Below, in pieces: positions 16,196 through 25,000 of a stretch of 32,000 bases of DNA. Made by a program: the position numbers and the translations under genes. The stretch covers positions 480,001-512,000 of the forward strand of contig CP064962.1 of NCBI GenBank assembly GCA_016699145.1. The letters run 5' to 3'. Numbering within the stretch: the first letter of the stretch is position 1; every line of letters begins with the position of its first letter. A model generated the notes under the pieces. The model did no database searches, was not told where the DNA came from, and saw only the letters and a list, made by a program, of their open reading frames with translations. The DNA comes from Candidatus Saccharimonadota bacterium (GTDB taxonomy: Bacteria > Patescibacteriota > Gracilibacteria > UBA1369 > 2-02-FULL-48-14).

Positions 16196-16567
16196 ATGAT
16201 GGACCCTCTCACCCGCACCGTTAAACCGGTGGCACACCGTCGCCTTCGCAAGCCTCTTTCCGAAGAAATTCAAAACATTTACCGTACTTTGGTCACCACT
16301 CTTCTCGTTTTAGGCATAAGCACCATGAGCTGCTATCTTTACGTGAACAGCCTAAAACCCGCTAAAGGTTACGAATTGAAAGAATTGCAAAACGAATACG
16401 AAAGCCTTCAAGCCGAACTGCGTAAACTCAATCAAAAAGTCATTGAAGCTCAATCCTTTGTGGAAATCGGTAAAAATGAAGCCATAGAACGCATGGACGA
16501 CATCAATGACCATCCGACTTCCTATGTCGACGACTCCAACCTCGCTCAACACTCCTCAGCTCACTGA
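16196..16567 (+). CDS. hypothetical bitopic protein, FtsL/DivIC-like (TM followed by coiled coil)
   Basis: TM helix LVTTLLVLGISTMSCYLYV is followed by ELKELQNEYESLQAELRKLNQKVIEAQ. The assignment rests on architecture only. Confidence 0.45.
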   Translation: MMDPLTRTVKPVAHRRLRKPLSEEIQNIYRTLVTTLLVLGISTMSCYLYVNSLKPAKGYELKELQNEYESLQAELRKLNQKVIEAQSFVEIGKNEAIERMDDINDHPTSYVDDSNLAQHSSAH

Positions 16568-17213
16568 GCTCATCCACAGGCTGGATAAGGAGTTCCCCAA
16601 GCCCGAGCCTCCCCTGCAGCATCGCAGTGTTTTTGAATTGCTCATTGCAGTGATTCTTTCGGCTCAATGCACCGATGCCCGAGTGAACACCATAACTCCG
16701 CTGCTCTTCCCAAAGAATCGCCCTTGTACACCTGAAGATCTTTTAACTTTGGGCGAAGCCAAAGTGAAGCACATCATTCATCCTTGTGGATTTTTCAACA
16801 CCAAAAGCAAGGCCATACTGGCCACTGCCGCTCAAATTCAAAAACTGGGAGGCGTGCCCAATCGCTTTGAAGAACTCATCAAATTGCCCGGCGTAGGAGG
16901 GAAAACAGCCCAAGTGATTTTAGCTCAATGGTTCAAACAAGATGCTTTCCCCGTGGACACCCACGTGCATCGCGTGTGCAACCGTTTGGGCCTGGCTCAC
17001 TCCAAGAAAAACGTCGCTAAAACTGAACGCGAGGTCAAGGCACGCGTGCCCAAAGAACACTGGAGCAAGCTGCATTTGCAACTGGTTTTTCACGGACGCA
17101 AAACTTGCACGGCCTACAAACCAAAGTGCGGGACTTGCCCGCTCTTTGATCTGTGTCAGTGGTCACAAAAGGACAAAAACGCCTCTAGAGACTCTCTGAT
17201 CTCTACTTCTTAG
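16524..17213 (+). CDS. nth: endonuclease III
   Basis: LLIAVILSAQCTDARVN. HhH-GPD motif LPGVGGKTAQVIL...VDTHV. [4Fe-4S] ligands are CTAYKPKCGTCPLFDLC. The start is uncertain (track gives 16506). Confidence 0.9.
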   Translation: MSTTPTSLNTPQLTELIHRLDKEFPKPEPPLQHRSVFELLIAVILSAQCTDARVNTITPLLFPKNRPCTPEDLLTLGEAKVKHIIHPCGFFNTKSKAILATAAQIQKLGGVPNRFEELIKLPGVGGKTAQVILAQWFKQDAFPVDTHVHRVCNRLGLAHSKKNVAKTEREVKARVPKEHWSKLHLQLVFHGRKTCTAYKPKCGTCPLFDLCQWSQKDKNASRDSLISTS

Positions 17214-18158: not shown

Positions 18159-19112
18159 CTACTCTTTAGAATAACCTTCAATGGCAGACAAACTCGAATA
18201 CCAATTGCGACTGATCTTGAAGGCATCAATCCTTCCACGACGTGCCAAGAGGCTCAAGTACTCCTGAGAATAAGGTGTTTTTTTAGCAAGTTCAGACAAA
18301 AGGAGATACTCTTCTTTTACGGAAGAAAAAGCACAGGCTTCCAAATATAAATCTAAAGATCGCTCAATGGCCTGTGCAACTAAGAGGTCCAATTTCTCAT
18401 AGTCCCCTTCATTGGCCTGATTCAGGGCATCATAATATTTTTTTCTATCATTTTTCAAAATAACTGCCGGCGGATAGCCCTTCTGCATAAGAGATAAATT
18501 CATCAAAAGCCTTCCCGTACGGCCATTTCCATCAAAAAAAGGGTGAATCCAAATAAAACGATGCTGAAGCTGAGCTGCAAAACACACTGGATTAAGCTGT
18601 TTTAGGCTTCGCTTCACCCATTCCATAAGCCTCTCCATAAGATCAGGCACTTTAAGTGGATTGGGGGGAACAAAGTTCGCCCCTGTAATACGCACTCGCC
18701 CATTGCGATACCGACCTGCAAAATCCTCCTCAATACCATCTAAAACCAAAGCATGTAGCTTAAGAATAATATCTTCCGTGAGTTTGGTCTTTTCTTTTAC
18801 CAACTGCATCAAAAATTGAATGGCCCTCTCATGATTTTTTGCTTCGAAATGCTCTCTTAAAGACTTCCCTTTGATGGTCACTCCATCCTCCAAAACCAGC
18901 TGAGTCTCCCGAAGCGTCAGGGAATTACCCTCAATAGCATTGGAGTTATAGGTCCAATCCAACGCGATTTGTTTCTGCAAACGCTCCAGCACACTTTTAG
19001 CTAAGGGCCTATGCCTGTCTAGTTCCTTCTTCTTTTTTTGAATGCGGACAAATATTTTCTGATTCATAATATCGGATAACTGCAAAAAGTATGGCATCCG
19101 ATATTCGTTCAT
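18159..19112 (-). CDS. fic: Fic family protein (putative AMPylase) with N-terminal inhibitory motif
   Basis: Fic core HPFFDGNGRTGR. SNAIEGN upstream matches (S/T)xxxE(G/N). The ATG at 19112 (MNEYRMPYF) sits 11 nt after an AGGAG; the track start is GTG at 19124. Confidence 0.85.
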   Translation of the reverse strand: MNEYRMPYFLQLSDIMNQKIFVRIQKKKKELDRHRPLAKSVLERLQKQIALDWTYNSNAIEGNSLTLRETQLVLEDGVTIKGKSLREHFEAKNHERAIQFLMQLVKEKTKLTEDIILKLHALVLDGIEEDFAGRYRNGRVRITGANFVPPNPLKVPDLMERLMEWVKRSLKQLNPVCFAAQLQHRFIWIHPFFDGNGRTGRLLMNLSLMQKGYPPAVILKNDRKKYYDALNQANEGDYEKLDLLVAQAIERSLDLYLEACAFSSVKEEYLLLSELAKKTPYSQEYLSLLARRGRIDAFKISRNWYSSLSAIEGYSKE

Positions 19113-19120
19113 GTCAAGGA

Positions 19121-19170
19121 CCACTCCTTTTGCAGGTTAAACGTGCTCCCCGGGGAGGAATTTACAGATT
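19121..19170 (-). repeat. copy 2 of the 50-bp dispersed repeat (inverted relative to 3659-3708)
   Basis: The reverse complement AATCTGTAAATTCCTCCCCGGGGAGCACGTTTAACCTGCAAAAGGAGTGG matches copy 1 at 43/50 positions. It lies immediately upstream of fic and includes its AGGAG. Confidence 0.85.
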
Positions 19171-19191
19171 ACAACGAAAAAAGCTTGACGT

Positions 19192-19206
19192 TGATGCCAC
19201 GGAGAA
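19192..19206. repeat. left copy of 15-bp imperfect direct repeat (putative att remnant of the tRNA-Glu 3' end)
   Basis: TGATGCCACGGAGAA versus TGATCCCACGGAGAA at 27494-27508, same orientation, 14/15. Identity stops abruptly on both sides. Confidence 0.55.
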
Positions 19207-19288
19207 GACGCTCGCTTCGCTCTCTATACGGTCGCAAGCTCCCTCACGAACTCCAGAGTTCGATTGTTCTCTTCGAGAACCACACATT

Positions 19289-19309
19289 AAAAATCACCCA
19301 CGAGGGGTG
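19289..19309 (-). terminator. rho-independent terminator candidate for the island operon
   Basis: On the minus strand: CACCC, loop CTCGT, GGGTG, then A TTTTT. It lies ~105 nt downstream of the stop of the 19413-20198 gene. Confidence 0.45.
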
Positions 19310-19412
19310 CTTTCCAATTTGGTGAGCCAATTGTACTCACAGTGGAACACTTTCGTAGAGGATGTGAGAACTTTTGCACAATGCGGAATTCCTACCTCCG
19401 CTTGAAAAATAT

Positions 19413-20198
19413 TTAGATCGAAAGGTGTAGCCGATTTTCAATAGCAGCACTCCTAAGAGTCAATACATCATATAGAAGCTTGTTCAGCTGGGGTTCAACA
19501 ACAGTAAAAGAAATGATCTTAAAGGCTGATGCATGATCTGTAAGCATTTTACGAATATCACGCTGTGCTTTTTGACTCATACCCTTAAAGGTTGTCTTTG
19601 TTGGAGCTAAAAAAGGCTTCTGCGAATCAAAGTAGCCCACAGAAGCACGCATAAATCGACCCATCTCCATCAACTCAGGTTTAGGTTGTGGATAAATTTC
19701 TTCTAGCTTTCTTATGAGGCGGTCGAAAGTCTCTTCAGTAAGCTTCGATAAGAAGTTTAAGATGAATTTCGGGTGCTTTTCCATTGCATCTTTCAAACTT
19801 GCAGATAGTGCACCAGTATTAACTTTTTCTTGAAAAATCGGGAGAACATCTGAGAATACATCCCTATCGGAATTAGCCACCTCTCCTTTGAAGTACTCTT
19901 GTTTATCTATAAGTTTCAGCCCAACAAGAAGCTTAAAGAGAAACCTATTCATTTCAAAAACAATGAACTCTGCTCGGGCTTGGTTTATCTGTCGCAATTG
20001 AGAATCCCTGCCATTCGCCAAAATTTTATCGAAAATAAATAGAGCGATACCGACAACAATTAAATTAGTTAGAATTCCTGTTAAAAAATTCACCCAATAA
20101 TCAACATCAAATGGCTCTGGGTGGATTCGAACAATGAAGAAGGTACAAATAGCAATCAATACCAACATGACGCAAGCAATCCACTTCTGAGATTTCAT
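19413..20198 (-). CDS. hypothetical membrane protein (two N-terminal TM helices plus ~190-aa soluble domain)
   Basis: 261-aa ORF. TM helices are WIACVMLVLIAICTFFIV and LTGILTNLIVVGIALFIF. No recognisable motif follows. Confidence 0.6.
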   Translation of the reverse strand: MKSQKWIACVMLVLIAICTFFIVRIHPEPFDVDYWVNFLTGILTNLIVVGIALFIFDKILANGRDSQLRQINQARAEFIVFEMNRFLFKLLVGLKLIDKQEYFKGEVANSDRDVFSDVLPIFQEKVNTGALSASLKDAMEKHPKFILNFLSKLTEETFDRLIRKLEEIYPQPKPELMEMGRFMRASVGYFDSQKPFLAPTKTTFKGMSQKAQRDIRKMLTDHASAFKIISFTVVEPQLNKLLYDVLTLRSAAIENRLHLSI

Positions 20199-20248
20199 AA
20201 AACGAAAATAGATGGGACAATTATAGCAACAAGAGTTTAATTCTAAAA

Positions 20249-20437
20249 TTACTTCACTTTTTTACACGAAAATACATCAAATAAAGACGCAGAAAGCACA
20301 TAAAACGTGTCACGCACTTGAAGCACCTCCTCGTCAGACAAGTTTACCTCCTTCAAAAGGCTCTTGCATTTAGACAGAGAAAGCTTGTCATTGCTTCTTT
20401 TGAGGTCTTGTTTTTTGTTTTCCTGTGAGGACATCAT
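20249..20437 (-). CDS. hypothetical small protein
   Basis: 62-aa ORF in operon orientation between the wHTH gene and the 2-TM gene. No motif recognised. Confidence 0.4.
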   Translation of the reverse strand: MMSSQENKKQDLKRSNDKLSLSKCKSLLKEVNLSDEEVLQVRDTFYVLSASLFDVFSCKKVK

Positions 20438-20520
20438 GAGTGATCAGATGCCTCTAGTTTGACCTCTCAACATCGCAAAAATGCTCGCAGCCCCTGCATC
20501 TGCCAACCTGTAAATGAAAT

Positions 20521-21282
20521 TTATTTTGCGATGTTTCCACTGAAACGGTATCCAACACCTCTCTCCACGCTTATGCGAGTAGCGAGTTCTGGAATCTTTT
20601 TTAACCTCGAAATAGCCCGCGTAATTTCTTCTCGACTTGCCGATTCAAATCCAGTCGGGCCTTTTAATGCCACGGAGAGTGTTCCAAAAGTAAGAATCTG
20701 CCCAGCGCTTCTAATGAAGTACTTTAAGAGCCATAAGTCCGTTGGACGTAACGTAGTGCTCCGCACTGGCTTCCCGTTCAACTCCGCACGGATGCGAGTC
20801 TGAGAGGTGAAAATGGCAAGGCTTCCAAACTGAAGCACCTCTTCTCCTCCTTTGAGTGCTTGTTCGATTTCAGCTTGCTTGAGTAGGTCGAAATGAATCT
20901 TTTCTAGGATCGGCTCGTACTCCTTTCGTGAGAAAAGAACGTTGCCCTCGTTGCCAGCCAAGAGCTTTTTGAACTCTTTGCCCATGAGGGAGATGTGAAC
21001 GTGCTTTCCAGTAACATCATCAATTGAACCACCGATGAGCCGAACCCAATCCTTTCTCTCAAGGCTGTAGAGGTAGAGGAGGGCTAACTTTTCGATGTCC
21101 TTGGCATAACGCTCTACATCGATGCGATTGGCAGTGGTCTTTTGTAGAATCAGATACATGGCTGGATCGTTCAAAACCCCAGAAACGTATTCTACAATTC
21201 TGTTGAAAAACTGACTTTCATCTTTTGCAGCAGTGATGAGTTCAAAGCGAGACTTCAGTACGTTTAGCTGCGGTTCAAACAT
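20521..21282 (-). CDS. OmpR/PhoB-type winged-helix DNA-binding protein with an unrecognised ~170-aa N-terminal domain (no receiver domain)
   Basis: The C-terminus LRPTDLWLLKYFIRSAGQILTFGTLSVAL...REEITRAISRLKKIPE...ISVERGVGYRF follows the trans_reg_C pattern (LTxxExxLLxxL...RLRKKI...VRGVGYRF). Confidence 0.75.
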   Translation of the reverse strand: MFEPQLNVLKSRFELITAAKDESQFFNRIVEYVSGVLNDPAMYLILQKTTANRIDVERYAKDIEKLALLYLYSLERKDWVRLIGGSIDDVTGKHVHISLMGKEFKKLLAGNEGNVLFSRKEYEPILEKIHFDLLKQAEIEQALKGGEEVLQFGSLAIFTSQTRIRAELNGKPVRSTTLRPTDLWLLKYFIRSAGQILTFGTLSVALKGPTGFESASREEITRAISRLKKIPELATRISVERGVGYRFSGNIAK

Positions 21283-21288
21283 GCTGAA

Positions 21289-21297
21289 ATTGTAGCA
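21289..21297 (-). promoter_or_regulatory. extended -10 (TGCTACAAT) placed 6 nt from the ATG; candidate leaderless promoter
   Basis: The minus strand reads ...GGTATGCTACAATTTCAGCATG. The -10 box ends 6 nt before the start codon at 21282. Confidence 0.45.
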
Positions 21298-21308
21298 TAC
21301 CCTTTAGG

Positions 21309-21554
21309 GCACCTTTTTCCTCTAAAAACTCCATCCAAAGTGAACAATTTGATCTGTTAATCAATTTTGAGTTTCTGGAGTGCCTTACATGCAACTTTTT
21401 CCTGCATAAACTCCGCACAAAATGCGCCTTTTGATCTGTAAATTAATTTTTAGTTTTTGCAGTGACCTAGGCGCACCTTTTTCCTCTCAAAAGTATTTCA
21501 AAAAGTCTCGACTTGACCTGTTAGGTCAGTTTGAGTTTTGACAGTAAGCAAACC
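21309..21554. repeat. three tandem, exactly phased 82-bp repeats
   Basis: Units are 21309-21390, 21391-21472 and 21473-21554. Conserved blocks are GCAMCTTTTTCCT (positions 1-13), TTGAYCTGTW (41-50), TTTGAGTTT-like (57-66) and AGT (71-73). Positions 21-40 are variable. Each unit carries a short dyad (TTGAT..ATCAA / TGACC..GGTCA). Confidence 0.9.
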
Positions 21555-21555
21555 G

Positions 21556-21765
21556 CTAGTTTTTAGGCCTCTGAGTATGCTTTCCCGCAAGTAAGTTCAT
21601 AAAGTACAGGAACCCCGTTGGAAGTAGGAAGAGGAAAAGACATGCAATCGCCCACGGCAGAGGGTTGTGACCAGTACGTGCAGCGTAAAGTGCTGTTTCT
21701 TTAGCGGCCCAGCCGAACGTGAATACATAAGCTGCTGCTAAGAAAATGAAAATGATGATGCCCAT
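21556..21765 (-). CDS. hypothetical small membrane protein (2 TM)
   Basis: 69-aa ORF with MGIIIFIFLAAAYVFTFGW and PWAIACLFLFLLPTGFLYF. It is divergent from the XRE gene. Confidence 0.5.
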   Translation of the reverse strand: MGIIIFIFLAAAYVFTFGWAAKETALYAARTGHNPLPWAIACLFLFLLPTGFLYFMNLLAGKHTQRPKN

Positions 21766-21841
21766 ATGAGGAGGGATAAGATTACTTTGCCATAAAGTAT
21801 CCCATTTTGGGTTATTCGAAAAGGGGATTTAAAGTTTTGGA

Positions 21842-22066
21842 ATGAAAAGCTTAAAAGATCCTCGCTATAGAAAGGTGGTCCAAGAATTAAAAACAGCTCG
21901 CCTTTCACGTAATTACACTCAAGAAGAAGTGGCCAAGCTGATAAAGAAGCCTCAGTCTTTTTTATCAAAAATAGAGAACTTCGAAAGGAGAATCGACATT
22001 ATCGAGTTATATGAGTTAATGAAAGTGTACGACTTAAAGTGGAATGAACTTACTCGGGGCTTTTGA
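21842..22066 (+). CDS. XRE-family helix-turn-helix transcriptional regulator
   Basis: LSRNYTQEEVAKLIKKPQSFLSKIENFERRIDI is a typical Cro/C1-type HTH. Confidence 0.8.
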   Translation: MKSLKDPRYRKVVQELKTARLSRNYTQEEVAKLIKKPQSFLSKIENFERRIDIIELYELMKVYDLKWNELTRGF

Positions 22067-25000
22067 AGCTACCCAAAAGCAAGGCGATGCTATCCAATAA
22101 AGCAAGCTTTTGGTCTTTCAAAGAAGCATGAACGACAATTGCCGATCGTGATTGCGATTCGTCCAAATACTTTCTACATAAAAGTGGTAGTAGTTTTGCA
22201 ACCCCTTGTCGATCGCTTTTACGAGCCTTCAAGAATTCAGTCAGAGTCAGAGTGAAGATTTTTTGAGAAGCATCCAGTGGAATGGCATCATCCATAATAA
22301 CCCTCGAAAGGAATTGGACAATAACTCCAAGGGCTACTTTTAGTTCCACCCCATATTCTTCAGACATCACCAACGGTAAGTTGAACTTTTTGATATTTTC
22401 TGGCTCAAGATACGAGATGGGACCGGAACCAAAAACCGCCTGCATCAATGCATCTGTCGTAACGGGTAAAAACCTACAACGGTAACCAGACAAGTACCTA
22501 AAGTAATCTAGGTACGAGCCAAAACTAAGCTTGCCAGTAAGCATCAAGGCTCGGACAAGGGCAAAAGAAGAACAGTACTTAGGCGGTTCTGCGGCTGCAT
22601 CACGTCCATATAAACGTAAACTCAAACCATCATCAGTTAAAATCGCTGAACCAGTTTCAGTGGCAAGTAGGTAGGCATCTTTCAACTCGTCCAATATGTC
22701 TATCTTTGGCTCAGCAGGAAGGTCTGACTTAGGTACAGCCAACTTTGAGCCAAAGTGCCCCTCAATAGCAGTAAGAGCGGCCTCCAAAACCTTTCTTGCC
22801 CTACTCAAATGCTCTTCTTGAACTTGAGAATATGTTAAGCGTCCGTTGGCGTAGCCCATGCGTCCAACCACACCGGGTACCGTACGGAACTTATCGAGGG
22901 CATCAAACAAAAAGTTCACTACAGATTGGGGTATCTGCAAGCCGGGGATATTTTCCAAAATTTCCTGCATCAAACCGGCCTCAGATAAAAAGAGTGCCGA
23001 AGTAACATCCAAATAACATTGCGCACCAGAAATGAGTTCTTTAGCAACGGCATCTTGTTTAGCCTGTTCAGCAAGTGAGCCATCGCTAAGCCAAATAAAT
23101 CCTCGCTGTTCTTGGACAATTTTACCAATTGCATTTGTCACTCCCCCTTGCTGATGAGCGAGAAAAACGAATGGCAAAGGACTCTGACAATACTGCTCGA
23201 AAGCACCATCCCTATCCGACTCCAAAGACTTCATAAACTCAGTCACATTATTGATGTCGAAGTTACCATTTTCATCCAAAACCTGAATAGATTGGATCAT
23301 AGGAGATCCATTTCTAGCGAATTCATTCATTGCCTCTCTAGCTCGCCAAAAAATATACTGTTCCAAAGAGAAAATTTGGGCGATCTTTCTAGGAGGTGTC
23401 CCAGAAAATTTATCACCGGAAAATTCTACAGTCTCTCCAACTTTTTTCCCCAAGACAACACCGTAACGTGGATCAGTAGTTCTTACGGACAATGCGTCCA
23501 ATTCAGCACCATCACCAAAGTGAAACCAACGTTCCTGATTATCAAACCTAACAAAGTTACCTTCTTGTACTTCGTCTTTGGAAATAAAGTTAAAGTCGTT
23601 TTCATCAAAACTACCAGATAAGCCAAACAGCATGCCATATTGTTCTTCGCTAGGCACTCCACAAGCCTGAAAACCCTCAACCACCGACCCGAGGGCCTCT
23701 TTTTTTTGACCAGACCTCAAATACAATTCTGCCTCAAGAAAGACCTTAAACTGAAAACTAAATCCAAATTTCGGATGAGAATTTATAAGTTCGATCGCTT
23801 CTTGATACTGGCCTCTTTTAAGGTAAGCCATGACCACACGTGCCAAAAGGGCCTCTAAGTTTTGAGCATCCAATAATTTAGGAGCCAGAGGGTCTTCCAA
23901 AAGTTGAGATCCAACAGAGATTACCTCCAAAAACTGGCCGAGGTTGAACTTTGCATTTAATAGATTGAGGCGAGATCGAAATAAGTCGATAGGTTCACTC
24001 TCTAGGGTCAGTAGCCTCTCTATCAGCTCAATTTGATCAACCCATGCAGCGACTTCACCAGTGACATCAACGCACAACCTAAGTTGGTTAATATCCAAGT
24101 TATCAATTTTAATTTCACGAAATGCCTCAAAAGCCTCCTTATGGTCTCCATTCTGGTGATGATAAAGCACCCAAGGAAGAGTAGTGCCTTCCTTATCGGA
24201 AGAAGTTTTCAACCACTCTAACAAAGCCTTTCTAATATCAGGAAAATCCTTTAGCGCCACAGTCATGTTATATGTGTATGCAGAGTCATCACCCAAAAAC
24301 TGGAGCACGCCAGTAAAATCACCATCCACTAAAGCACCGATAAAGTCGGTAACACTCTTTTCGCCGATAGCCTCAAAAAACTCCTTCCCCTTCCCAAGAA
24401 GTTGCCCTTTTATTAAAAACTGAAAAACAAGGGTCTTTACGAGACCCTCAGAAAGATTTTCATCGATAGACTTCAGATGACTGAGAAGTGCATCCAAATC
24501 CTGATCACCAACTACCCTCGAAAGTAGCTTCATTAACGCCTCCTCTACAACTGCATCATGTGGAACAACCAAGGACAGTGTTTTGACTTCAGAAAAAACT
24601 TTATCCAAGTCAGCAAATCGACTTTCCGCAGCCAGTATGTCTATCATCTCAACCAACATTGCCAATCTTTGCCTCTCAGAGTCTGTACGCCACATCTTCA
24701 TTTTAGCGAGAGTAGAGTCTATTAACTCAGAAAGACTCGACAGTTCAGCCTTTGTTACTGTCCCACGTTCTTTCCTTTTGAGTCGTCCATTCAACAAAGA
24801 AGCCTTCACCCGATAATTGACCAATGAGTCAGGATTAGCCCGTATTGCTTTCTCAATAAACTGGTCAGCTTTTGCAGTCTCTCCCGCAACCTCAAAACAT
24901 ATGCCATAGACCCTATAGCAGGTGGATGCAGCGCGATTCAAAGTCGGGAACGCAGATTCATCTAGAGTAGAAAGGTCAATTTGAGTACCTTGCCTCAAAT

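Follow-up and report, generated by a model that had tools for sequence, protein, structure and literature searches.

Introduction

Phage lysogeny modules are known to contain membrane-anchored or lipoprotein superinfection-exclusion (Sie) factors, such as Ltp of phage TP-J34 (PMC3952083), and tycheposons are small integrative elements that target tRNA genes, carry cargo and defence genes and, in a minority of cases, encode a large serine recombinase (LSR) (bioRxiv 10.1101/2020.12.28.424599). Here we analyse an island that resembles both, found in a 32,000-nt stretch of the genome of Candidatus Saccharimonadota bacterium (assembly GCA_016699145.1, contig CP064962.1, positions 480,001–512,000; hereafter the window). 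The island contains five small genes, a giant gene for a protein of 1237 amino acids (aa) and an LSR gene, and nothing more. An earlier note on this DNA, made from the sequence alone, had treated the five small genes as one uncharacterised cargo operon. We find instead that three of them, which encode a 74-aa regulator of the XRE family, a 69-aa protein with two transmembrane helices (2-TM) and a 253-aa winged-helix protein, form together with a palindromic candidate operator and a repeat array a cassette that is tied to an LSR/tRNA integration module.

In its layout the cassette is reminiscent of phage immunity and lysogeny regions: the gene of a small XRE regulator borders a divergent promoter region with a palindromic candidate operator, and a small membrane protein (joined by a lipoprotein in the sister elements described below) is encoded beside the regulator and near an integrase. 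As with immunity regions and the regulation modules of integrative elements, the cassette resides on a site-specifically integrated element. It differs from phage immunity regions in that the membrane gene and the XRE gene diverge and are not co-transcribed, in that a second regulator of OmpR type and a long repeat array are present, and in that the element is only 8.3 kb long, without phage or conjugation genes. Nor does any sequence similarity connect it with Ltp, Sie, Imm or TraS/TraT.

With tycheposons the island shares an integrase beside a tRNA gene, a partial tRNA repeat at the far end and a modular backbone with variable cargo. However, most tycheposon-type elements have tyrosine recombinases and primase/helicase modules, none of which we found in this island, and a cassette of XRE, 2-TM, repeat and winged-helix components has not been described among them (bioRxiv 10.1101/2020.12.28.424599). 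The 253-aa protein resembles OmpR/PhoB-family factors (PhoP, RstA, GlnR) in the predicted β-sheet/three-helix/wing fold of its C-terminal part, with weak but specific sequence matches, and in having DNA repeats that adjoin a promoter. Unlike these factors it lacks a receiver, its N-terminal half being predicted to be all-α and having no detectable relative, and its candidate target consists of 82–118-bp quasi-palindromic units, not of short direct repeats.

We prefer to read the stretch, with about as much belief as doubt, as the counterpart of an immunity region in an LSR island, in which an XRE/operator switch, an exclusion-type envelope protein and a winged-helix regulator acting on the array would be accompanied by two ORFan accessory genes. 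The novelty lies in the protein family and the cis elements and not in the logic, which is familiar.

Results

A cassette conserved in two metagenomic recombinase elements

The cassette recurs in only two other elements, both metagenomic: L001 (recovered again as L002–L004 and L006) and L005. In both, an XRE gene on the minus strand is followed by a divergent gap with the operator, a gene for a 108-aa lipoprotein (lipobox LLAC / LSAC), a gene for a 66-aa 2-TM protein, the repeat array, the winged-helix gene, a 47-aa gene and a gene for a 565-aa LSR. The cassette order is thus XRE, operator, lipoprotein (in the sister elements), 2-TM gene, repeat array and winged-helix gene, and in L001 and L005 the 47-aa gene and the LSR gene come directly downstream of the cassette and in the same direction. 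The 3′ end of the L001 LSR gene runs 58 nt into a tRNA-Pro gene (L001 12705–12762). Such an overlap of the LSR gene with a tRNA gene is common to the window (tRNA-Glu) and L001 (tRNA-Pro), despite the low identity of the recombinases.

By tblastn, only the XRE protein (40–43% identity), the 2-TM protein (52–53%) and the winged-helix protein (45–47%) are common to the window and L001/L005. Because the LSRs are 27% identical and align in their N-terminal region only, and because no remnants or relatives of other L001 genes were found in the window, the cassette is the sole shared unit. The giant gene and the 62-aa and 261-aa open reading frames (ORFs) that make up the rest of the island have no homologue in L001 or L005. 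The earlier note had left it open whether the small genes act together with the 1237-aa protein or independently of it; for the conserved part, independence is supported, and the 62-aa and 261-aa ORFs are outside the conserved cassette.

The cassette genes are under purifying selection. Between L001 and L005 the ratio of nonsynonymous to synonymous divergence (dN/dS) is 0.14 for the XRE gene, 0.08 each for the lipoprotein and 2-TM genes, 0.15 for the winged-helix gene and 0.06 for the 47-aa gene, i.e. divergence is synonymous-biased throughout (0.06–0.15). The earlier note had proposed to follow gene order and coding conservation of all five ORFs together with the giant gene. The XRE, 69-aa and 253-aa genes are indeed linked and coding, as judged from L001/L005, and their families show synonymous-biased divergence; the giant gene is not part of this linkage, and for the 62-aa and 261-aa ORFs, which are ORFans, coding support is intrinsic (codon usage) only.

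In each of the two independent lineages the cassette goes with an LSR/tRNA integration module. It has the appearance of element backbone, or of an immunity region, and not of cargo. The coordinates of the cassette and of all other features are listed in Table 1.

Synonymous divergence (dS) between L001 and L005 is uneven, with values of 0.25–0.35 for the XRE, M78, HTH (helix-turn-helix) and DUF2188 genes and 1.2–1.4 for the winged-helix and lipoprotein genes, which suggests mosaic recombination or faster turnover of the latter two. Beside the cassette the sister elements (L001 381–7133, L005 190–1667) have further genes that are candidates for defence or addiction. They encode a Bro-N protein (PDC-S13), an ATPase of the AAA_14/DUF4143 type (PDC-S01), a PDC-S54-like protein of 211 aa, a RelB/ParE-YafQ pair and an ImmR/ImmA-like pair of an HTH protein and an M78 peptidase.

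Table 1. Positions of the island features and boundaries in the window, with the basis of each assignment.
Feature	Coordinates	Strand	Basis
Degenerate second tRNA-Glu 3′ end, attL-like (TCTCCGTGGCATCAACG), proposed left island boundary	19189..19205	-	tRNA 3′ 17-mer match
Terminator-like hairpin and T-run downstream of the 261-aa gene	19295..19309	-	consensus scan only
261-aa ORFan with two N-terminal transmembrane helices and a helical C-terminal region, probable accessory gene	19413..20198	-	ORF list, hydropathy, codon usage
Promoter-like site TTTAGA-16-TG-n-TATAAT directly upstream of the 261-aa gene	20220..20247	-	consensus scan, 10/12 matches, extended -10
62-aa ORF, putative small gene	20249..20437	-	ORF list, codon usage
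Weak terminator-like hairpin after the 253-aa gene	20486..20498	-	consensus scan only
253-aa regulator, predicted all-α N-domain (~1–142) and C-terminal OmpR/PhoB-type winged helix	20521..21282	-	Pfam, AF2, Foldseek
Extended -10 element TGCTACAAT, 6 nt before the 253-aa ATG (implied leaderless start)	21289..21297	-	sequence
Three tandem 82-nt quasi-palindromic repeats (21309–21390, 21391–21472, 21473–21554)	21309..21554	-	self-comparison
69-aa 2-TM membrane protein with conserved inter-helix loop	21556..21765	-	ORF list, hydropathy, homologues
Palindromic candidate operator ATCCCATTTT-N10-AAAAGGGGAT in the 76-bp divergent promoter region	21799..21828	.	sequence
74-aa XRE/Cro-CI-type HTH regulator, divergent from the 69-aa gene	21842..22066	+	Pfam HTH_3
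1237-aa HNH-TPR-PIN protein, cargo independent of the cassette	22050..25763	-	PADLOC, Pfam
Large serine recombinase	25840..27531	+	Pfam Resolvase, Recombinase, Zn_ribbon_recom; phrog_95 1e-43
tRNA-Glu(UUC), integration target and right island boundary	27491..27565	-	ARAGORN and Rfam, 62 bits

The XRE gene and its candidate operator

The XRE protein matches Pfam HTH_3 with 43.7 bits (cut-off 23), and in PADLOC it matches generic HTH and control-protein models only. In full-length alignments it is 36–38% identical to its homologues in L001 and L005, which hold the same relative position there. Its gene overlaps the giant gene by 17 nt at the 3′ end and, as described in the earlier note, is divergent from the 69-aa gene across a 76-bp gap (21766–21841).

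The gap contains a 30-bp palindrome that is unique in the window and conserved as a candidate operator in L001 and L005. A core of ~37 nt around it (TAAATCC...GGATA) is identical to L001 at 33/37 positions, while the proteins are only 36–53% identical. The combination of an HTH_3 domain above the cut-off with a palindromic candidate operator in the gene's own promoter region is that expected of an XRE/Cro-CI-type regulator, and the protein may act on this site. A scan of viral contigs with the operator motif gave no match.

A second 76-bp gap (25764–25839) separates the giant gene from the recombinase gene, which likewise diverge. It equals the gap between the XRE and 69-aa genes in length and contains two CTACAAT motifs.

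A small membrane protein with a conserved loop

Membrane helices were called by Kyte-Doolittle hydropathy, which places transmembrane segments of the 69-aa protein at residues 1–22 and 35–61 and agrees with its earlier description as a 2-TM protein. Its homologues were detected only by tblastn in the L001 and L005 loci; a word-indexed search of 5.8e9 proteins yielded none, and a scan of viral contigs with the 2-TM alignment gave no match. The C-tail is basic. As the positive-inside rule puts a basic tail in the cytoplasm, the C-tail is probably cytoplasmic and the conserved inter-helix loop probably lies outside the cytoplasm. By analogy, an exclusion-type role is plausible: the protein has the architecture of exclusion proteins, a small membrane product encoded beside an XRE gene, the resemblance being one of architecture only.

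These features would also suit a stand-alone accessory cassette for defence, exclusion or abortive infection, in which the 69-aa protein, possibly together with the 261-aa protein, would serve as membrane effector or entry-exclusion factor under the control of the XRE and winged-helix proteins, and the link to the recombinase would reflect hitch-hiking. The strong conservation of the inter-helix loop and the adjacent lipoprotein in L001/L005 recall Sie/entry-exclusion pairs (PMC3952083), all three loci have defence-type neighbours (the HNH-TPR-PIN protein and a Fic protein in the window; PDC-S54, PDC-S01 and PDC-S13 in L001), and the cassette has moved between islands with unrelated LSRs. Nevertheless, the 69-aa and 261-aa proteins have no PADLOC, Pfam, PHROG or NCBIfam match, and the 253-aa protein has no defence-family match. 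Moreover, most of what is conserved is regulatory (two DNA-binding proteins and two cis elements, for a single 69-aa product), neither the 261-aa nor the 62-aa gene is conserved along with the cassette, and the cassette was not found in phage, plasmid or viral collections. We consider a pure defence cassette unlikely.

The earlier note had likened the small genes to regulator/effector or exclusion modules. No known defence or effector family was matched by the small proteins (PADLOC, Pfam, NCBIfam, PHROGs). A comparison with known anti-phage defence systems in PADLOC-DB v2 gave no match for the 69-, 62-, 253- and 261-aa proteins, nor for the L001 homologues of the cassette proteins, and a membrane-disrupting regulator/effector mechanism is purely conjectural. 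The composition that the earlier note had emphasised, regulators and small membrane proteins on a mobile island, stands, as does the mobility; its reading as a single operon of cargo genes does not.

A rare protein with a predicted OmpR/PhoB-type winged helix

Residues 176–247 of the 253-aa protein match Pfam PF00486 (Trans_reg_C) with E=1.1e-5 and 25.8 bits, 0.4 bits under the gathering cut-off of 26.2. Its two homologues have no Pfam match, and a profile of the three family sequences matches the RstA DNA-binding domain with E=0.05. To describe the fold we used an AlphaFold2 (AF2) model built on the three-sequence alignment (pLDDT 67.9, pTM 0.58). In the model an all-α N-domain (residues 1–142) precedes a β-sheet/helix/wing domain. 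The winged-helix region (pLDDT ~75–85) contains strands at 148–168, helices at 180–191 and 217–227, and a hairpin at 237–247. The predicted arrangement, an N-terminal β-sheet, three helices and a C-terminal hairpin wing, is that of the OmpR/PhoB winged-helix fold, and the best Foldseek matches of the model in the Protein Data Bank (PDB) are the DNA-binding domains of PhoP (PhoP-DNA complex 5ed4), PrrA, GlnR and NsrR. A Foldseek search against viral structures returned none. The invariant residues of the family cluster in the predicted recognition helix, R217–K229.

In contrast to the C-terminal domain, the N-domain has no structural match in the PDB (Foldseek), and the N-terminal half has no detectable relative among 1.84e9 representative proteins. 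The protein was considered as a two-component response regulator and rejected as such: its N-terminal 142 residues are predicted to be all-α, with no Response_reg match and no structural match. The earlier note had described an N-domain of ~170 aa that is not a receiver, followed by a winged helix. The winged helix and the absence of a receiver hold, the length being closer to ~145 aa, and the remote-homology and structure predictions that the note had proposed for this domain returned a predicted all-α fold with no recognisable relative.

The 253-aa protein is extraordinarily rare. A word-indexed search of 5.8e9 clustered proteins recovered only two homologues, 47% and 45% identical, and when 1.84e9 representatives were scanned in full with an HMMER profile, the only further matches were to the winged helix alone (P0005 and P0007). 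Scans with the winged-helix alignment found none in genome contigs or viral contigs, a scan of metagenome contigs recovered L001 only, and tblastn of the protein against plasmids and phages found none.

The gene is preceded by an extended -10 element, TGCTACAAT, which directly follows the last array unit and is identical, with identical spacing, in the window, L001 and L005. Because the element lies only 6 nt before the ATG, its position implies that the gene is leaderless. The same motif precedes the LSR gene in the same arrangement.

A quasi-palindromic repeat array

A tandem array that had escaped the earlier note fills the 273 bp that separate the 69-aa gene from the 253-aa gene. Identity to copy 1 is 73% for copy 2 and 62% for copy 3, and the self-identity at a lag of 82 nt is 0.634, compared with a mean of 0.352 (sd 0.016, maximum 0.425) in 1000 shuffles. 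Tandem Repeats Finder overlooked the array, its copies being <75% identical. L001 and L005 have homologous arrays at this position, with three units of ~117 nt in L001 and two units in L005; their period is 116–118 nt as opposed to 82 nt in the window. The units match by position across loci; the middle one, CTGCA...TGCAG in the window and L001, has been lost from L005. A covariance model found no copy elsewhere in the window or the loci, and we treat the array as a putative cis element dedicated to the cassette.

Each unit is quasi-palindromic, with 12-nt arms (ACTsnnAAAACTC ... GAGTTTwnnsAG) in which 85% of cells are complementary. The arm sequences are unit-specific and are kept across loci. 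Three arm pairs show compensatory double changes, and the covariation score is 0.211 versus 0.085 for shuffles, of which 1/500 is as high; the signal collapses in slid controls. We take an operator array in double-stranded DNA as the default reading of the repeats, while the unit-specific, compensated arms keep hairpin models, in RNA or in single-stranded DNA, alive.

An RNA hairpin model would have the repeats encode a structured non-coding RNA of three tandem hairpins, like a type III antitoxin or a processing or attenuator element, that acts on neighbouring proteins or mRNAs. Tandem repeats upstream of a protein gene, the arm pairing with its covariation, and arms that differ between units, as expected if mis-pairing between hairpins is avoided, are all compatible with such an RNA. 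Against it, folds of single units are no more stable than those of shuffles on either strand (z -0.2 to -1.5), the RNAalifold consensus of the units amounts to -3.2 kcal/mol with 5 pairs around a 62-nt loop, Rfam contains no family for the array even at E<=1, and the neighbouring protein is a predicted DNA-binding winged helix and not an endoribonuclease. We regard an RNA function as very improbable. A type III toxin-antitoxin system in particular was rejected, as the folds do no better than shuffles, no Rfam match exists and the downstream protein has a predicted winged-helix DNA-binding fold.

A single-stranded DNA model would make the array an origin of replication or transfer: the 253-aa protein would be an initiator or origin-accessory protein, the repeats would be iteron-like or form a hairpin origin (ori, oriT or a single-strand origin, sso), and the excised circle would replicate or be mobilised. 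Like iteron-type plasmid modules, the locus encodes a winged-helix protein of ~250 aa and has tandem repeats immediately before the gene of that protein, a rep-plus-iteron layout. The array is also AT-rich (GC content 0.37), its unit-specific arms with compensated complementarity fit hairpins in single-stranded DNA, and many small integrative elements carry replication modules. However, Foldseek matches of the 253-aa model are to OmpR/PhoB DNA-binding domains only, with no Rep WH1/WH2, Orc/Cdc6 or HUH protein among them, and no helicase, primase or relaxase was found in the 8.3-kb island. The predicted fold is thus OmpR-type and not WH1/WH2, and the units are 82–118 bp long with a period that varies between loci. 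Iterons are typically 17–22 bp; the units are 4–5 times longer and palindromic. An origin function appears decidedly doubtful on these grounds. We rejected an iteron-type replication module as such for want of any Rep-like structural or sequence match and for the difference in period (82 nt in the window, 116–118 nt in L001/L005).

A model for the cassette

The observations described above show how the cassette is built, that it is conserved and under purifying selection, which fold class its winged-helix protein has, where the island ends and that the cassette is independent of the giant gene; from them we infer which protein binds which DNA and what the membrane proteins do. In the immunity-region reading, an XRE dimer would bind the 30-bp palindrome and set the on/off state of leftward transcription. 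This transcription would first yield the 69-aa 2-TM protein, which would act at the envelope in an exclusion-type or signal-relay role and, in the sister elements, would be paired with the lipoprotein encoded before the 2-TM gene. Next along are the three quasi-palindromic repeats and the putatively leaderless gene of the orphan OmpR/PhoB-type winged-helix protein, whose helical N-domain may oligomerise the protein on the array. The 253-aa protein would autoregulate and also control the genes downstream, i.e. the 47-aa gene and the recombinase gene in the sister elements, and the 62-aa and 261-aa genes in the window. The giant gene and the two ORFans would be variable cargo of the island.

Several observations weigh against this model. 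Only two independent lineages are available, the window and the L001/L005 pair, so that a constant association with an LSR island has only n=2 behind it. The window carries the cassette in inverted orientation, with the giant gene between it and the recombinase gene; direct control of the recombinase can therefore not be read from the gene order there. Unit-specific arms with compensatory changes differ from what is predicted for a protein that reads identical half-sites, and OmpR-family proteins usually bind short direct repeats, not palindromic units of 82–118 bp. Finally, an empty site was not found in the genome collection, which holds no close relative of the host lineage (endonuclease III <=51% identical). 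The flanking endonuclease III (window 16506–17213) has its best relative in that collection at 51% identity, and its matches are scattered over many phyla; the host lineage is poorly sampled there.

The unusual arms leave a small but real chance that the XRE/operator/2-TM/repeat/winged-helix block is a self-contained device of a kind that has not been described. Hairpin repeats, in RNA or single-stranded DNA, would then take the place of ordinary operators and be read by a new type of OmpR-fold protein. This protein would make excision or expression of the island respond to a signal that the 2-TM protein passes on from the envelope, or the block would be a new exclusion or abortive system. Among the features described, only the unit-specific, compensated palindromic repeats might lead in an unexpected direction.

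If the immunity-region reading is correct, there is a very rare family of small LSR islands that integrate at tRNA genes and ferry defence-type cargo in a poorly sampled bacterial lineage, and the cassette defines its backbone. Backbone and cargo would be separated, the HNH-TPR-PIN giant and the two ORFans being the variable payload, and two concrete cis elements and an OmpR-fold regulator with a relative-less N-domain would be flagged for attention.

Island boundaries, recombinase and giant gene

The 3′ end of the tRNA-Glu gene has a second copy (14/17 nt, same strand) between the Fic and 261-aa genes. It is the sole match in the window with <=3 mismatches to the tRNA 3′ 17-mer, ~0.04 such matches being expected by chance. 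Because this copy sets the far boundary, the island extends over 19189–27507, or ~8.3 kb, and the Fic gene lies outside. The statement in the earlier note that the five small genes fill the rest of the island is confirmed by this left-hand limit. The GC content is 0.426 in the island and 0.47 and 0.46 in its flanks. An LSR with Resolvase, Recombinase and zinc-ribbon domains that adjoins its tRNA target, with a repeat of the target at the far end, identifies the element as an LSR island at a tRNA gene.

Over its last 41 nt (27491–27531) the LSR gene overlaps the tRNA-Glu gene, running antisense to it across the att core. If crossover occurs in the shared core, the integrated LSR has 563 aa, with the last 8 codons encoded by the host, and in the excised circle the frame reads into 19206–19325 to give an LSR of 595 aa. 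Because the two forms differ in this way, integration may change the C-terminus of the recombinase.

The 1237-aa protein has an HNH-type N-terminus (PADLOC PDC-M68A, 9e-27; also SduA- and CBASS-effector-like) and Pfam matches to TPR and PIN-TPR-GreABC (PF20698, E=1.4e-5). The closest plasmid homologue found, on Fluoribacter dumoffii plasmid pLD-TEX-KL, covers query residues 631–1181 at 29% identity and adjoins a small resolvase; none of the small island genes is present there. A literature search on TPR-GreAB-C-PIN returned nothing useful.

Accessory ORFs and transcription signals

All five small ORFs of the earlier note are present at the coordinates it gave. The 261-aa ORF has coding-like codon usage (z=5.6, best of six frames), and hydropathy supports the two N-terminal transmembrane helices that had been proposed for its product (residues 3–30 and 34–64). 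A word-indexed search of 5.8e9 proteins found no homologue, and the protein has no similarity to a 266-aa protein of L001. It was rejected as a SLATT-type 2-TM pore effector because it has no match to SLATT, nor to any other Pfam or PADLOC family, at E<=0.1. A single-sequence AF2 model (pLDDT 40) is uninformative on the soluble domain. Codon support for the 62-aa ORF is weak (log-likelihood ratio +0.13, best of six frames, z=2.9). This ORF has no family match in PADLOC, Pfam, NCBIfam or PHROGs and no homologue, and it does not resemble the 47-aa gene that L001 has in the corresponding place.

Promoter-like and terminator-like signals were taken from a consensus scan only. The candidate promoter of the 261-aa gene lies within the 50-bp gap before that gene, and terminator-like hairpins follow the 253-aa and 261-aa genes. 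Since such signals split the series, the four minus-strand genes, described previously as running in series in one cargo operon, probably form several transcription units. The 62-aa and 261-aa genes appear to be lineage-specific ORFans with promoter-like and terminator-like signals of their own.

Shine-Dalgarno motifs are generally absent from host and island genes of the window, and a -10-like element (TGCTACAAT or TAAAAT) is found 6–7 nt before the ATG of several genes, e.g. those starting at 16196, 21282 and 25840. Together these two features suggest that leaderless mRNAs are widespread in this organism.

Immediately outside the proposed attL lies a Fic-domain gene (18159–19124, minus strand; PADLOC SoFic / PDC-S04, E ~1e-40). 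Given this position, it would have been located directly downstream of the original tRNA-Glu gene. Its GC content is low (~0.42–0.44), and the gene may therefore represent older foreign DNA.

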